Source: an uncultured Candidatus Saccharibacteria bacterium (GTDB taxonomy: Bacteria; Patescibacteriota; Minisyncoccia; UBA6257; JAKLIH01). From it: a stretch of 25,901 bases of DNA. Shown in pieces: positions 1,229 through 25,836 of the stretch (position 1 is the first letter of the stretch; each line of letters starts with the position of its first letter). The notes beneath the pieces are model-generated. The model was not told the origin of the DNA and did no database searches. It was given only the letters and a program-made list of their open reading frames with translations. Location: assembly GCA_964507765.1 (NCBI GenBank), contig CAZDQI010000002.1, positions 1-25,901 on the forward strand, read 5' to 3'. A program made the translations under genes and the position numbers.

Positions 1229-1444
1229 CTATTTCTTTGCTTTTTTGGTTGTCTTGGCTTTCTTGGTAGTTGTCTTTTTAACAGTTTTTTTAACCTTTTT
1301 TGCTGGTTTCTTTACTGCTTTTTTTACAACTTTCTTTGTTGCTTTCTTTACTGGTTTCTTTGTGGTTTTTTTGACAACCTTTTTTGTTGCTTTCTTTACT
1401 GGTTTCTTTTTAGCAACTTTTGTGGTTTTATTTTTTGCAACCAT
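1229..1444 (-). CDS. Histone H1-like Lys/Ala/Thr/Val-rich basic protein, 71 aa
   Basis: Repeated xKKxx pentapeptides (KKPVKKATKKVVKK twice), like Hc2/AlgP-type repeats; has its own promoter and terminator; TAG stop. Confidence 0.75.
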   Translation of the reverse strand: MVAKNKTTKVAKKKPVKKATKKVVKKTTKKPVKKATKKVVKKAVKKPAKKVKKTVKKTTTKKAKTTKKAKK

Positions 1445-15211: not shown

Positions 15212-15712
15212 TTAATTAATTACTTTTCTTTGAATAATGTTTTTATTTTGACCTTTTTGCGCTTTAACGTGGGTTTTTTCTTTTCTTTGAATTTGATTTT
15301 TATCTTTGTTTATTGTTCTCTTTTTTGTTTTACTTTTACTTTCAATGTCTTTAATATCAATTTTCTTTAATTTCTTTTCATCAACTGGTTTTAATGTCAT
15401 GACAACATGACAAGAGCGATGACGGATCAAATAAGCTGATCCTCTAGCTCTAGGTCTGGTTCTTTTAAGGGTTGGACCATCAGTAACATTGATTTTTGAA
15501 ATATATAAGTCTTTAGGATCGATTTGGTGATTGTGAATAGCATTAGCTTTAGCTGATTTTAATAACTTCAAAATATCAACTCCAGATCTCTTAGGAGAAT
15601 ATTTTAGCTGACGCTCAGCTTGTTCAATACTTAAACCTTTAATTAAACGAGTAACTAATCTGACTTTTCGAGGAGCTATTCTTAGGTATTTTAATGAAGA
15701 TATTATTTCCAT
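15212..15712 (-). CDS. rplV: 50S ribosomal protein L22 with basic C-terminal extension
   Basis: LRIAPRKVRLV, KSAKANA, LKRTRPRARG. Confidence 0.96.
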   Translation of the reverse strand: MEIISSLKYLRIAPRKVRLVTRLIKGLSIEQAERQLKYSPKRSGVDILKLLKSAKANAIHNHQIDPKDLYISKINVTDGPTLKRTRPRARGSAYLIRHRSCHVVMTLKPVDEKKLKKIDIKDIESKSKTKKRTINKDKNQIQRKEKTHVKAQKGQNKNIIQRKVIN

Positions 15713-18975: not shown

Positions 18976-20175
18976 TTAGGCAATAATTTTTGTTACAACA
19001 CCAGCGCCAATAGTTTTACCTCCTTCACGGATAGCAAATCTTTGTTTTTCTTCCAAAGCAACTGGAGCGATTAATTTGATCTTAAAGGTTGCTGTATCGC
19101 CAGGCATAACCATTTGGACGCCTTCGGCTAAAGTAACATCACCTGTAACATCAGCGGTACGAATGAAGAATTGTGGTTTGTAACCAGAGAAGAATGGAGT
19201 ATGTCTACCACCTTCATCTTGAGACAAAACAAAAACTTCAGCTTCAAATTCAGTATGTGGTGTAAGTGATCCTGGTTTAGCAATAACTTGACCACGTCTA
19301 ATATTTTCTTTTTTAATACCACGTAATAATAAACCAACATTATCACCAGCTTGAGCATCTTCCATACTCTTGTTGAACATTTCAACACCAGTAACAACGG
19401 TTTTAGTTGTTGGTTCATAACCAACAATATCAGCTTCATCATTAACTTTTACCATACCTCTTTCAATTCTACCAGTAACAACGGTACCACGGCCTTCAAT
19501 AGTAAAGATATCTTCAATTGGCATAACAAATGGTTTGTCGGTATCACGTTCTGGAGTTGGGAAATATGAATCAATAGCATCTAATAATTTAACAACAGCT
19601 TGAACATGTTCATCTTCAAAAGATGTTGCTTCAGTAGCTTTTAAGGCAGATCCACGAACTATAGGGATTTCATCGCCTGGGAATTCATATTTTGTTAATA
19701 AATCACGGATTTCTGCTTCAACTAAATCGATTAATTCAGGATCAGAAACCATATCTGTTTTATTTAAGAAAACAACTAATGCTGGAACACCAACTTGACG
19801 AGCAAGAAGAATGTGTTCTCTGGTTTGAGGCATAGGGCCATCAGCAGCTGAAACAACTAAGATAGCACCATCCATTTGAGCTGAACCAGTAATCATGTTT
19901 TTAATGTAGTCAACGTGACCTGGACAGTCAATATGAGCATAGTGACGATTGTCTGTTTCATATTCTGAGTGATGAACATTAATAGTAATACCACGAGCTT
20001 TTTCCTCTGGAGCTTTATCAATTTCATCAACATTAGATGATTTTTTAATTAAACCCTTTAAGAAAAGAGTATTTAAGATAGCGGCTGTCAATGTTGTTTT
20101 TCCATGATCAACGTGACCAATTGTACCAACATTCATATGTGGCTTGGAGCGCACAAATTTTTCTTTTTCTGCCAT
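18976..20175 (-). CDS. tuf: Elongation factor Tu
   Basis: [32 protein letters not shown]. Confidence 0.99.
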
Positions 20176-20266
20176 AATTTTTTTTTAATATTTTTTTATA
20201 AAAATTATTAGTTGAAGCCAATTCAACCAAACTTAATAAATTTATTAAGTTTCTTAAAGCAATCAT

Positions 20267-20295
20267 ATACTATCATATAGAATAAAAATAGTCAA
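20267..20295 (-). promoter_or_regulatory. Proximal tuf/S10 promoter
   Basis: TTGACT (20290-20295), 17 bp, TG-n-TAGTAT (20267-20272). Confidence 0.65.
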
Positions 20296-20304
20296 TACCT
20301 ATTT

Positions 20305-20545
20305 ACCAACAGCCAAGAGTGTGACCTTGATAGGGATAAATACCTCCCTCTTATCAAGGAAATAGTTTAGTATTTGCTCGTCTTTCAAAAACAAACTATT
20401 TTGTTCACACTACATAGACGAGTCAAAAAGTACAACTGTCGTCAGTAATTCTGGCGACAACAAAATTCATATTTAAAATACAAATTTATGCTCTCACCTG
20501 AATAAACAAATACTTTACTATTCACACTCATTGCGGTTGTTATAT
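20305..20545 (-). ncRNA. Candidate structured ncRNA or leader, ~240-250 nt, family not recognised
   Basis: Lies downstream of a consensus promoter; 5'/3' closing helix GAGTGTGA/TCACACTC; several internal hairpins; ends are approximate. Confidence 0.45.
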
Positions 20546-20551
20546 ACTGCT

Positions 20552-20580
20552 ATTATAGCATTTTATTTTTAAATTGTCAA
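20552..20580 (-). promoter_or_regulatory. Full-consensus sigma70 promoter
   Basis: TTGACA (20575-20580), 17 bp, TG-n-TATAAT (20552-20557). Confidence 0.8.
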
Positions 20581-20581
20581 A

Positions 20582-21361
20582 TTAGCTAATATTTTGTTGA
20601 TTCCTTGCATTCCTTACAGAATCAATTTCTGCCATTATTTCTGGATATTGCTTATGCATTAACTCATATAGGCCAGAACGAGAACAACCAATTTCTCTTG
20701 CAGCTGCGCTCATGCCATCCTTAGCAATTTTTTTAGCAACTTCATTAATATCGTTAATTTTAATGGGGCTATAACTAAAATATTGTTTAAATTCTGGATG
20801 AACATTTTTAATATAGCTCTCCATCCTTTTTCTAGTAATGCCTAATTCTCTAGCAACGCCTTTTATGCCTTTTCCGCTTTTTATACTTTCTTCTAAATAA
20901 TTTCAATATTCATCAAGCACTGCATATATTTTTTCTTTTATTTCGCGTTGTTTACCGGGCATTGAAATTATATAACGAATTTTTTCTATAAGATCCTTGG
21001 GTATAGATTTAGTAACATCTTTTTTTGATAAAAACACTTTGGCTCATTTAATAAAAGCTGAAATAAAAGACTTATTGGATATTTTATCTTTTTTAGGAAT
21101 TAATTTTTCTATTTCTACAGCTGCATCTACAATTATTGGCGGGACAGTATATTTTTCTTCACTTGGCTCAAAAGAATTTAATCGCATATATATTTGCTTG
21201 CAAATTTTTGAAAACAATTTTTTTTGATCATCATTTTTAAAAGCAATTTTTCAATCAAAACTTCCCCTCTTATTAATAAATCTATACAATATGTCTTCTA
21301 TCTTGATAGTCCTATTAATTTTTGATTCTTCTTTTAAAATGCATTGTTCTTTGTTCTGCAT
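20582..21361 (-). CDS. Hypothetical protein with two C-terminal HTH-like motifs, 259 aa (3 TGA); paralog B
   Basis: Open frame through TGA at 21251, 21044 and 20903; IKGVARELGITRKRM and MSAAAREIGCSRSGLY; colinear with the neighbouring paralog. Confidence 0.8.
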
Positions 21362-21373
21362 AATATATTTAAT

Positions 21374-22144
21374 TTAATTATGTTTTTTATTTTTTTTATT
21401 GTGTTGTTTTATTTCTTCCATTACTTTGGGATAATTTTTCTTTAAATAACCACTAAGACATGTTATCGAGCACCCTAGTCTTTCCGCCATTGCATCCATA
21501 CCGTTATCAAAAATATATTGTTTAGCCTCTTCGATATTTTCAATTTTAATTTTTGAGTATCTTTGTTTAATACTTCATCCCGGACTTCTTGTTGTAACAT
21601 ATGCCTGTAATTGTGGTAAACCCATACCCAATTCTCTAGCAATACTTGAAATATTTCTGCCACTAGCTATAACTTCTCCTAAAACTTCTTTGTATTCATC
21701 AAGTATATCATATACTGCGTCTAAGTTTTTTACACCTAATTCAAATTCTCTTGCCTCATTAATTTTATCTATAAGCTCTCAAGGAATAGGTTTAAGATAT
21801 ATTTTTTTAAATAAATCTTTTTTAGCTCATTTAATAAAAGCCATGATAAACTTTTTATCAGATATTTTTTCTCCTTTGGGTATTAGTTTTTCTATTTCAA
21901 TAGCAGCGCTTGCAATAATAGGAGGAACTGCTCCCTTTTCTTCTCTTGGCTCAAAAGCATTTAACCTTAAGCATATTTTTTCACAAATATCTAAAAAAGT
22001 TTTTTCATTACTTTTGTCTTTAAAATTTAATTCTAAATTAAATTTTCCACGGTTATTTAAAAAACGATATACCATATCCTCGATTTGAAGAATTCTATCT
22101 ACTTTTGAGTCTTTTTTAAGTATTGCTTCTCTTTGTTTTTTCAT
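21374..22144 (-). CDS. Hypothetical protein with two C-terminal HTH-like motifs, 256 aa (3 TGA); paralog A
   Basis: Track ORF 21827-22144 extends through TGA to TAA at 21374; ISSIARELGMGLPQL and MDAMAERLGCSITCL; 61/108 identical to paralog B over the N-terminus (hand alignment). Confidence 0.8.
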
Positions 22145-22236: not shown

Positions 22237-24354
22237 TTATTCTTTTGCAGTTGGTTTTCTTTTAGAAATAATTTCATCAGCAATATTTTTTGGAACTTCT
22301 TGATAGCTATGGAATTCCATACTAAATGTACCTCTGCCTTCAGTAAATGATCTTAAATTGGTTGCATAACCAAACATTTCTGAAAGTGGAACTAATGAAT
22401 CAACAATACGTAATCCCATACGTTCATCCATTTTTTCAATACGTCCACGTTTAGAATTAATATCACCAATAACATCTCCTAAGAAGTCTTCTGGGGTAGT
22501 TACTTCTAATTTCATAATTGGCTCAAGAATAACTGGTTGAGCTTTTTTAGCTGCATCTTGGAAAGCCATAGAAGCTGCTATTTTGAAAGCAAAATCAGAT
22601 GAGTCAACATCATGGAAAGAACCATCATAAAGAGTAACTCTTAAATCAGACATTGGGTAATTAGCTAAAATACCTTTATCAGTAGCTTCTTTAGATCCTT
22701 TTTCAACTGAAGAAATAAACTCTTGAGGAATAACACCACCTTTAATTTGACTAACAAATTCAAATCCTTTGCCTCTTTCAAGTGGTTCAACCCTTAATCA
22801 AACATGACCATATTGGCCTTTACCTCCAGATTGTCTAATGTATTTACCTTCAGCTTCGGATGTTCCATTAATTGTTTCTCGATATGCAACTTGTGGTTTA
22901 CCAGAGTTAAGTTCAACATTAAACTCACGTTTCATACGATCAATTAAAATATCAAGATGTAATTCACCCATACCACCAATAATGGTGTCATTGGTTTCTT
23001 CATCTGTCTTGATTTGGAATGTAGGGTCTTCATCAGAAAGTTTTTTCAAAGCTTCTCCCATTTTGTCTTGATCGCTTTTAGTTTTAGGTTCAACTTTCAA
23101 TCAAATAACTGGATCTGGAAATGAAATATTTTCTAAAACAATTGGGTGATTAGGATCACATAATGTATCACCTGTTTTGGTATTTTTCAAACCAACAGTA
23201 GCAGCAATATCACCAGCTTCAATATCGTCAATATCTTCTCTTTTGTTAGAAAACATACGAAGAATACGTCCAATTCTTTCTTGACTGTTTTTATTTGAAT
23301 TTAATAAATAAGATCCTTTTTCTAATCTACCGGAATAAACTCGGAAAAATGACAATGTACCAACATATGGGTCAGTAGCAATCTTAAATACTAAAGCAGA
23401 AAATGGTTCTTTCTCATCTGCTTTACGAAGAATAGTTTCACCTTTAAGGTTATCACCTTCAACTGGTTTAACGTCTAGTGGACTTGGTAAAAAGTCAACA
23501 ACAGCATCTAACATTAATTGAACACCTTTGTTTTTGAAAGCAGATCCACATAAAACAGGAACGATTTTATAATCAATGACTGATTTTCTTAAAGAAGTTC
23601 TTAATTCTTCTTCAGTAAAATTAGCATCACCATTTAAATATCTTTCCATTAAAGCATCATCTTCAGATGCAATTTTTTCAACTAATTCATCTCGTTTTGA
23701 TTGAGCTATATCTTTCATGTCTTCAGGAATATCTGATAATGTTAATTTTTCACCAAGTTGACCTTCGAAATTAACTCTTTTCATTCTGATTAAATCAATA
23801 ACTCCTTCAAAATTAGCTTCTTTGCCAATAGGTATATTTAAAGCAATCGCATTAGGAGTTAATCGCTCTTTGATCATGTTTAAGTCATTATCAAAATCAG
23901 CACCCATACGGTCAAGCTTGTTAACAAAACATAAGCGTGGAACTAAATATTTATCTGCTTGTCTTCAGACAGTTTCTGATTGAGGTTCAACACCGGCAAC
24001 ACCATCAAAAACAACAACAGCACCATCTAGAACACGCAAAGAGCGTTGAACTTCAGCAGTAAAGTCAATATGCCCTGGTGTGTCAATAACATTGATTTTA
24101 TATTTATAATTTTCATCATTGTTTCTATAACTTGTTATTCAGAAACAAGTAGTAGCAGCAGATGTAATAGTAATACCTCTTTCTCTTTCTTGTTCCATCC
24201 AGTCCATAACAGCTGCGCCTTCATGAACTTCTCCAATTTTATGAGAAAGACCAGTATAAAATAAAATACGCTCTGATGTAGTTGTTTTACCGGCATCAAT
24301 ATGTGCAATAATACCAATATTACGTATTTTTTCAAGAGGATATTCTTGAGACAT
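22237..24354 (-). CDS. fusA: Elongation factor G, 705 aa (4 TGA, 1 TGG)
   Basis: [12 protein letters not shown][TGA], DTPGH, SETV[TGA]RQA, NKLD, GQYGHV[TGA], [10 protein letters not shown]; four track ORFs share one frame, with TGA at 24139, 23965, 23101 and 22798. Confidence 0.98.
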
Positions 24355-25422: not shown

Positions 25423-25451
25423 ATATTACCATATCTATTATTAAAAGTCAA
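25423..25451 (-). promoter_or_regulatory. Probable str-operon (rpsL) promoter
   Basis: TTGACT (25446-25451), 17 bp, TG-n-TAATAT (25423-25428). Confidence 0.55.
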
Positions 25452-25490
25452 TAAAATACCGCCAAGACATATAACCTAAGATCTTGGCGG
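25452..25490 (-). terminator. GC-rich hairpin terminator
   Basis: CCGCCAAGA (25459-25467)/TCTTGGCGG (25482-25490), followed by TATTTT on the minus strand. Confidence 0.6.
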
Positions 25491-25590
25491 CTGTGGTATA
25501 ACACGATATGTGGCTAGATAATTTCCTTAACTGACAATAGCCTTACATTGTCAGTTAAAATAAGGTACGAGTTGTGCATGGTTCTGCACA
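25452..25590 (-). ncRNA. Candidate ~140-nt small RNA with its own promoter and terminator
   Basis: Hairpins at 25572-25591 (7 bp) and 25527-25558 (12 bp) plus the terminal hairpin; no known family recognised. Confidence 0.45.
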
Positions 25591-25595
25591 ATCAA

Positions 25596-25624
25596 ATACT
25601 ATCAAATCATTCTTAAATTGTCAA
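25596..25624 (-). promoter_or_regulatory. Sigma70 promoter driving the candidate sRNA
   Basis: TTGACA (25619-25624), 17 bp, TG-n-TAGTAT (25596-25601). Confidence 0.65.
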
Positions 25625-25735
25625 TACAATAGAATATTATGTCTTGATCGCCAGAAATACATTCTTTAAAGAATGGTGCACCGGTTGTCTCTTTATACTA
25701 ATAACAAAATTCTATAATGTTTAAGTCAATAAATA

Positions 25736-25759
25736 CCGCCAAGACATATGTCTTGGCGG
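25736..25759. repeat. 24-bp perfect palindrome CCGCCAAGACATATGTCTTGGCGG
   Basis: Read directly; arms identical to the hairpin at 25459-25490. Confidence 0.8.
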
Positions 25760-25836
25760 CGGATTTTAGGATTGCCTGATTCGGCTAATATCTCGGCAAA
25801 ATATTGGGCTTGCCGAACGCCCTATGTCCATGTTTA

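Follow-up and report, generated by a model that had tools for sequence, protein, structure and literature searches.

A candidate structured RNA of about 245 nt, with its own promoter, between a pair of multi-HTH protein genes and tuf in a Patescibacteria lineage that reads UGA as tryptophan

The locus described here raises a simple question: what is the 406-nt non-coding gap that separates two unannotated protein genes from tuf? The window, by which we mean the whole stretch of 25,901 nt that was analysed, carries on its minus strand the gene order of a ribosomal-protein supercluster (rpsL-rpsG-fusA ... tuf-rpsJ-rplC ... secY). L30 is absent between rpsE and rplO, which is usual in CPR bacteria. 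The gene fusA (22237-24354, minus strand) is followed by a terminator at 22229-22205. Between it and tuf (18976-20175, minus strand) lie the genes pA and pB and the gap itself (20176-20581). It is the sole long untranslated gap in the window once the gaps that hold small genes and the region before rpsL are set aside.

The reading of every gene around the gap depends on the genetic code. Under table 11 many genes of the window appear broken, and they are intact when TGA is taken as a sense codon. The in-frame TGA codons occupy conserved Trp positions in EF-G, L4, S3 and L2. In a tblastn comparison with 78 standard-code relatives the residue opposite TGA was W in 258 of 350 cases, and the organism is therefore taken to use UGA for Trp (code 4). 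The same observation also covers the related contigs L003, L004 and L172. The nearest tuf genes among the GTDB species genomes belong to Patescibacteria/Paceibacterota MAGs, the tuf of L003 being 88% identical in amino acids, and together with the missing L30 this makes the organism a CPR bacterium of Patescibacteria/Paceibacterota type. In the NCBI MAG GCA_028691405.1 (L176) the same genes are called as fragments, the expected result if its annotation used the standard code. Papers from 2026 give UGA-to-Trp reassignment only for Bacillota, Pseudomonadota, Verrucomicrobiota and Actinomycetota (PMC13462651).

Two other features of the window were recorded. The rplV region (15212-15712) is 99.8% identical between the window and contig L001 and the neighbouring genes are 90-92% identical, which suggests recent recombination or a mosaic contig. 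A 71-aa protein (1229-1444, minus strand) is extremely Lys/Thr/Val-rich and repetitive (KKPVKKATKKVVKK...), and it looks like a histone-H1-like or nucleoid protein.

The gap opens with a promoter, here called promoter P1 (20580-20552, minus strand). It consists of TTGACA (20580-20575), a 17-nt spacer and an extended -10 element, TGcTATAAT (20560-20552). The initial annotation of this DNA had pointed to a consensus promoter of the form TTGACA-17-TGnTATAAT, and promoter P1 is indeed the only 12/12 match within the 25.9 kb, the runner-up scoring 11/12. Its -35 element begins 2 nt past the stop codon of pB (TAA, 20584-20582). Across all haplotypes the promoter is unchanged save for one spacer base. 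The start site is predicted at about 20546-20544. From there a candidate non-coding RNA of about 245 nt (20300-20546, minus strand) would extend, with 81 predicted base pairs and with its 5' end paired to its 3' end.

Comparison of the folding energy with that of shuffled sequence had been suggested at the outset, and the candidate RNA folds far better. Its minimum free energy (MFE) is -76.8 kcal/mol against -48.1 +/- 4.1 kcal/mol for dinucleotide shuffles (z = -7.05), and none of the 200 shuffles was as good. The plus strand folds nearly equally well (z = -7.6), so that the assignment to the minus strand depends on the promoter and on the G.U pairs. Folding the alignment of the haplotypes gave the same fold as the single-sequence MFE.

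In the predicted architecture an outer three-way junction, made of helices P1, P2 and P3, surrounds an inner four-way junction, which holds hairpins A, B and C (all coordinates on the minus strand). The closing stem has an outer extension, helix P1b (20539-20533, CAACCGC, with 20313-20307, GCUGUUG), and an invariant helix P1a (20529-20522, GAGUGUGA, with 20324-20317, UCACACUC), the two separated by a 3x3 internal loop. A repeat finder reports this stem as a 25-nt inverted repeat with 80% complementarity. Helix P2 is divided into P2a (20521-20517, AUAGU, with 20366-20362, ACUAU), in which a compensatory change is found, and P2b (20513-20507, GUAUUUG, with 20376-20370, CAAAUAC). The P3 hairpin (20359-20325) contains 7 bp, a bulge, 4 bp and a variable loop, and it adjoins the 3' strand of P1a with zero spacer.

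Of the inner hairpins, A (20503-20448) is long and irregular, with 23 bp that include several G.U pairs. Hairpin B (20447-20431) is short and weak. It is the least certain helix, and its region pairs otherwise in the single-sequence folds of L001 and L168. Hairpin C (20422-20377) has the stem CUCGUCU/AGACGAG and, beyond a large internal loop, an inner hairpin (20389-20406). A block of 44 nt (20413-20370), which includes the internal copy of AGUGUGAA, is unchanged in every haplotype. Several of these helices had already been drawn in the initial annotation and recur here: the closing helix 20522-29/20317-24, which P1b extends outward; the long-range helix of (A)GUAUUUG (20514-20507) with CAAAUAC(U) (20376-20369); and the hairpin at 20325-59. 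A further hairpin proposed at 20437-59 (UGUCG/CGACA) is able to form, but it competes with hairpin A, and hairpin A is favoured by the MFE, by the alignment fold and by a U.G to C.G substitution.

Two mutually exclusive folds had also been proposed. The underlying repeats are both real. AGUGUGAA is present twice (20528-21 and 20411-04), and the 9-bp repeat AAAUAGUUU (20401-393) is complementary to AAACUAUUU (20368-360). An alternative in which the internal copy of AGUGUGAA and AAAUAGUUU pair with the 3' strands is thus able to form, but the best fold with this pairing reaches only -65.6 kcal/mol and falls 11 kcal/mol short of the MFE. In the 3' strand that both folds use, the changes fit either one, and nothing covaries specifically for the alternative. 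The alternative pairing lies inside the RNA and touches no terminator or ribosome-binding site.

Homologues of the element come from closely related organisms. The gene order pA-pB-RNA-P2-tuf, in which P2 is a second promoter described below, is identical on seven more contigs (L001, L083, L092, L168, L169, L176 and L177). The contigs were drawn from Logan, JGI and NCBI; L002 is a partial copy, and the source MAG of L178 is GCA_028697995.1. More variants were taken from the Logan runs X2, X3 and X19. Runs X1-X3 come from digester and landfill sites at which the organism is abundant. Most of the extra Logan runs hold the haplotype of the window, and X3 added two changes that keep pairing. All sources combined yield about 4-6 haplotypes, the most distant ~10% apart; four that share the locus differ by about 8-10%.

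In L001 the RNA is 90.0% identical to that of the window, and the tuf 5'UTR 96%. Third codon positions in the same comparison are 76-81% identical in pB, rplB, rplC, rplD and rpsJ, and 91-93% identical in tuf, rpsS and rplW. Since the RNA does not exceed the third positions of these last three genes, its bulk conservation is only moderately informative. The substitutions are unevenly placed with respect to the fold. When the MFE fold of the window alone is used, 11 of 162 paired columns are variable as against 16 of 74 unpaired ones (Fisher p = 0.0017), and the test is not circular because that fold was predicted from the window sequence alone. With the alignment fold the counts are 8 of 162 and 19 of 74 (p = 1e-5).

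Two pairs have changed on both sides. In P2a a U-A pair of the window and L168 is C-G in L001 and L083, and in P3 an A-U pair is replaced by G-C in L001; the loop and bulge of P3 vary freely. Five one-sided changes, two of them from X3, keep the pairing through G.U intermediates. In hairpin A these are U.G to C.G and G.U to A.U, with U.G to U.A and A.U to G.U added by run X3. At position 20535 of P1b the window has C (a C.U mismatch), L001, L083 and L168 have A (A.U) and X2 has G (G.U), and at 20537 A is replaced by G (G.U) in L168. Three pairs predicted from the window alone do not form in other haplotypes, all of them terminal and beside loops; one terminal pair of hairpin A is lost by a change from G-C to A.A. 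Search for homologues and covariation analysis, the check that the initial annotation had named, thus produced homologues and two compensatory pairs, but the covariation score was equalled by 19 of 500 shuffles (four distinct sequences), and with only about 4-6 close haplotypes covariation is statistically weak. We consider it quite probable that the RNA structure is under selection.

No known family accounts for the element. Rfam 15 (4227 models) gave no match at the gathering threshold in the whole window or in five related loci. At E <= 10 only chance matches to eukaryotic or unrelated families were returned (queries of 501 nt and 266 nt), and there was none to RNase P, 6S, SRP or tmRNA at E <= 10 with lax filters on the 266 nt. 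ARAGORN reported no tRNA or tmRNA in the window. The initial annotation had seen no tmRNA, RNase P, SRP or common riboswitch signature, and both ARAGORN and the Infernal/Rfam scan that it had suggested agree with this.

The distribution of the RNA is very narrow. The intergenic region was compared with 80 GTDB-species tuf loci by blastn and nhmmer, and only the part with P2 and the 5'UTR was matched, in L003. A covariance model of the RNA (R1) was run against 87 sources (642 kb) and found the known copies only; neither the 80 related genomes nor L172 has one near tuf. An exact 17-mer scan of JGI metagenomes gave 85 matches, 2 of them real and both from the same lineage, and a 19-mer scan of viral contigs gave none. 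Comparison of the region and of the RNA with phage databases and records returned nothing beyond the consensus of promoter P1. The RNA is confined to one narrow lineage, where it always follows pA-pB and is single-copy. Its depth in run X1 supports this (8.4 for a 422-nt contig, 20178-20599, with flanks at 6.9-9.5), and in X2 one contig covers the entire element and both borders.

An unusual junction was seen in run X18 (activated sludge). Here a 275-nt Logan contig matches 20297-20392 exactly and then continues into 179 nt of unrelated sequence, the break falling precisely at the end of the RNA, at the point expected for the start of P2. The 30 nt of this foreign flank that were compared had no match among the sequences searched. 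The junction could be a structural variant, a second context of the RNA or an assembly artefact.

The genes that always precede the RNA encode related proteins. pB (20582-21361, minus strand) has 259 aa with UGA read as Trp, and consists of a family-specific N-terminal domain followed by two generic HTH repeats. pA (21374-22144, minus strand; 256 aa) is its paralogue, with 44% identity. Pfam and NCBIfam assigned neither protein to a family and gave sub-threshold HTH matches only. A profile search of 1.8 billion representatives identified two full-length remote relatives, P0006 and P0007, and the other remote matches have the generic tandem HTH repeats alone in common with pA and pB. The AlphaFold model of pB has a pLDDT of 68.7, and Foldseek found nothing significant for it in the PDB. 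A few sigma-factor chains topped the Foldseek list at a probability below 0.1 and were not counted as evidence. No match to pB was found among viral contigs or phage records. The family as a whole is small and unannotated, with a specific N-terminal domain of ~130 aa and 2-3 HTH repeats (window; L171/L172; L170). In two lineages a gene of this family stands directly after fusA, the proteins sharing only 27-30% identity.

The second of these arrangements is found in L172, where P0007/P0063, a distant pA-family gene, directly follows fusA. After P0063 come a promoter (TTGAAC-17-TAAAAT), a 135-nt element, an unrelated 446-aa gene and then tuf. The 135-nt element (L172 7084-7218) is closed by GCGCAGA/UCUGCGC, folds with z = -3.9, has no Rfam match and is identical in four contigs. 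It has no detectable homology to the RNA of the window, 88 of 300 shuffles scoring as high. The layout of a pA-family gene, a promoter and a closed structured RNA is only a hint of protein-RNA pairing. The initial annotation had raised a possible link to the adjacent HTH genes. That link is consistent with the layout of L172 and with all eight independent contigs, each of which carries pA-pB-RNA, and its evidence is synteny throughout.

On the other side of the RNA lies tuf, with a promoter of its own. Promoter P2 (20295-20267, minus strand) reads TTGACT, 17 nt, TGaTAGTAT. It is the separate downstream promoter reported earlier at 20267-95, and it is the native tuf/S10 promoter, outside the RNA. 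Its GGTATTGAC... context and extended -10 are conserved in L003, L004 and L172, all of which are without the RNA. The tuf leader, as distinct from the RNA, contains two 5'UTR hairpins (20210-20252, minus strand), the second with a U/A-rich tract after it. They are also conserved in the RNA-less relatives L003 and L172, and the tuf of L172 is 94.5% identical (code 4). As the P2/5'UTR module is kept in relatives that have no RNA (L003, L004 and L172), the RNA sits upstream of an ancestral tuf promoter module. Upstream of tuf it is absent from L003, L004, L172 and 77 other relatives.

From P2 onward, the 5'UTR of tuf (20176-20266, minus strand) has counterparts at L003 3424-3500 and L172 8700-8798, and can be recognised in relatives whose tuf is 88-94% identical. 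Its second hairpin, GUUGAA...UUCAAC, is followed by the U/A-rich tract and then by AUG without a Shine-Dalgarno sequence. This 5'UTR may be a conserved attenuator or translation element.

The 3' end of the RNA lies ~5-10 nt ahead of the -35 element of P2. No intrinsic terminator separates the RNA from tuf; the closest hairpin that resembles one stands ~75 nt downstream of the RNA, beyond P2. Clear intrinsic terminators are used by the same genome after fusA and twice upstream of rpsL. With no terminator after the RNA, transcripts from promoter P1 would read into P2 and tuf unless processed. A search of an index of RNA runs returned no run for the region. The organism is scarce in the three metatranscriptomes X25-X27, where its own tuf contigs reach a depth of 3-5, and the depth of 0 over the RNA region is uninformative at such abundance.

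Upstream of rpsL there is another candidate small RNA (25448-25624 of the window, minus strand), behind the promoter TTGACA-17-TGaTAGTAT (25624-25596). Its transcript of ~145 nt has three hairpins (z = -4.4) and no Rfam match of weight, and a clear intrinsic terminator, GCCGCCAAGA...UCUUGGCGG with a U-tract, closes it. Nearly identical terminator stems of GCCGCCAAGA / UCUUGGCGG occur twice, at 25735-25760 and 25448-25487 (minus strand). Both directly precede ATTT(T)ATTGACT, a -35 element, and thus form a repeated terminator-plus-promoter module.

What, then, is the element in the gap? Its conservation, the pattern of substitution, the two compensatory pairs and the negative Rfam results mark it as real, selected and without a family. 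The initial annotation had offered a new ncRNA or a switch-like leader. Its first half agrees with a selected, structured, RNA-like element of no known family, and its second half is not supported. Our preferred reading, tentative and a little short of an even chance, is an independently promoted, lineage-specific structured ncRNA of ~245 nt that represents a new family and is released from a read-through transcript.

The main rival is that the RNA acts in cis, as a structured 5' leader of a P1-tuf-S10-spc transcript with tandem promoters. It could then serve, for example, as a stabiliser of the mRNA 5' end, as a processing stalk, or as a switch that senses a protein or ligand and adjusts read-through into tuf. 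The RNA does lie on the tuf strand with no terminator in between, a terminator-like hairpin with a U-tract stands shortly before the tuf start codon, and the alternative pairing of the 3' strands with an internal copy of the 5' strand exists, an A-to-G change at 20366 being compatible with it. However, P2 intervenes, and it is the conserved native promoter of relatives that have no RNA. The fold is self-contained and overlaps no terminator or ribosome-binding site, the alternative is energetically much the poorer, the covariance model finds nothing near tuf in the related genomes, and the analogous element of L172 goes with a pA-family gene and not with tuf. We regard such a leader, in any of these roles, as unlikely, and the same observations speak against the switch for tuf/S10 that was first proposed. 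The known ribosomal-protein leaders, such as the E. coli S10 leader bound by L4, are likewise structured RNAs on the same strand, upstream of a tuf/S10/spc-type cluster. The present RNA differs from them in lying upstream of the conserved promoter of the operon rather than between promoter and gene, in being absent from close relatives that share the operon, and in having neither an Rfam leader match nor an attenuator coupled to its fold. A very diverged housekeeping RNA (RNase P RNA, 6S RNA or SRP RNA) that Rfam misses in CPR bacteria is more improbable still. The strong promoter and the paired ends would suit it, AGUAAAGUAUUUG and ACGAGCAAAUACUAA bear a superficial sequence likeness to the P4 strands of RNase P, and the diverged RNase P RNAs of CPR bacteria do escape default thresholds (PMC8172020). 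Those RNAs emerged when the thresholds were lowered (PMC8172020), whereas here no RNase P match emerged at E <= 10. ARAGORN finds no tmRNA, there is no SRP domain IV motif, the fold is branched and not a 6S-type rod, and a homologue is missing at this locus in the closest relatives (L003, L004 and L172). P4 of RNase P is a pseudoknot of CR-I, which comes after P2-P3, with CR-V, which comes after the P2 3' strand. The P4-like strands of the present RNA (20514-07/20376-69) instead form a simple nested helix, with no counterpart of the RNase P P2 or of its P3 hairpin ahead of them.

Two further readings deny a functional RNA altogether. In one, the element works as DNA, either as inverted repeats bound by pA/pB or as a MITE or transposon relic, or else it is a functionless structured spacer. 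The 25-nt imperfect inverted repeat at its boundaries, the good folding of both strands, the narrow distribution and the X18 contig, which departs from the known context at 20297, just beyond the 3' end of the RNA, would all fit. Yet the element is single-copy at the depth of its flanks, it keeps G.U-type pairs that are meaningful only for a minus-strand RNA, its variation is concentrated in the predicted loops, and its consensus promoter sets the start of transcription at the foot of the closing helix. We judge this reading improbable. The MITE or transposon relic in particular was rejected on the single copy, the contigs that cross both borders, the same context in 8 of 8 contigs and the lack of a flanking direct repeat. 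The other reading is a small protein gene, for which the window does contain a 54-codon ORF under UGA = Trp (MSVNSKVF...KTSKY, minus strand, start 20531). No ORF is conserved across the haplotypes under code 4. This one is frameshifted by a 1-nt insertion in L001 and L083 and is absent in L168, and 4 of 5 substitutions in the shared N-terminal part change the amino acid. A small protein gene is thereby effectively refuted and we give it next to no weight. Explanations other than the five named here would together make up a small remainder.

A new ncRNA, our preferred reading, invites comparison with known bacterial RNAs. 6S RNA and 6S-like RNAs such as Ms1 offer a parallel in gene organisation: a strong sigma-70 promoter, a long 5'-3' closing stem, no terminator of their own, a protein gene directly downstream on the same strand and hence a need for processing. 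The 6S RNA of E. coli derives from the ssrS-ygfA transcript. It is a rod made of a closing stem, a large central bubble and a terminal stem, which binds the sigma-70 holoenzyme and templates product RNAs. The present RNA differs in having no Rfam 6S match, in its length (~245 nt against the usual ~185 nt) and in its three-way and four-way junctions, which replace the rod with a central bubble.

Other resemblances are to particular features. P3 adjoins the 3' strand of the closing helix much as the T arm adjoins the acceptor stem in tmRNA and other tRNA-like junctions. In contrast to tmRNA, there is no ARAGORN match and no T-loop sequence, the loop of P3 is the most variable part, the closing helix extends outward and leaves no free acceptor end, and there is no tag reading frame. 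In the complexity of its multi-junction fold and in its conserved internal loops the RNA resembles raiA, OLE, HEARO, GOLLD and ROOL, which were also defined by conservation and covariation alone. It matches none of their Rfam models. Families of the raiA type extend over many genera with tens to thousands of sequences, whereas the RNA described here has been seen in just one narrow lineage, with 4-6 haplotypes.

If the ncRNA reading is right, RNA polymerase starting at promoter P1 would read through P2 into tuf. The closing helix (7 bp, 3x3 loop, 8 + 5 bp) would then be an element of processing and end protection. Processing would free a stable, self-contained RNA, by analogy with 6S RNA, which is co-transcribed with its downstream gene. 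The invariant 44-nt block, mostly internal loop plus a small hairpin, would be the likely protein-recognition surface, and the co-inherited multi-HTH proteins pA and pB are the most obvious candidate partners. A bolder proposal, which we consider rather doubtful, makes the RNA the RNA subunit or cofactor of a novel ribonucleoprotein. Its partner would be the multi-HTH family (pA/pB, P0006 and P0007/P0063), whose genes come directly after fusA in a Patescibacteria clade with UGA = Trp, and each lineage would have its own rapidly diverging, promoter-equipped closed RNA (245 nt in one, 135 nt in the other).

The novelty of the element is at the level of an RNA family only, in that no known family or kind fits it, a claim that its very narrow distribution qualifies. 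The locus also reveals a lineage within the Patescibacteria that reads UGA as Trp, and to which public annotation currently applies the standard code. To our knowledge the non-coding RNAs of CPR bacteria are almost unexplored, and these organisms are not open to study in culture. Time and again, RNAs with a complex multi-junction fold and unvarying internal loops have proved to be ribozymes, scaffolds of ribonucleoproteins or regulators of polymerase. The RNA adjoins translation-factor genes and an unstudied protein family that is conserved at that position. If transcribed as predicted, it would add to the CPR a bacterial RNA that is new, fairly large and intricate in its fold.
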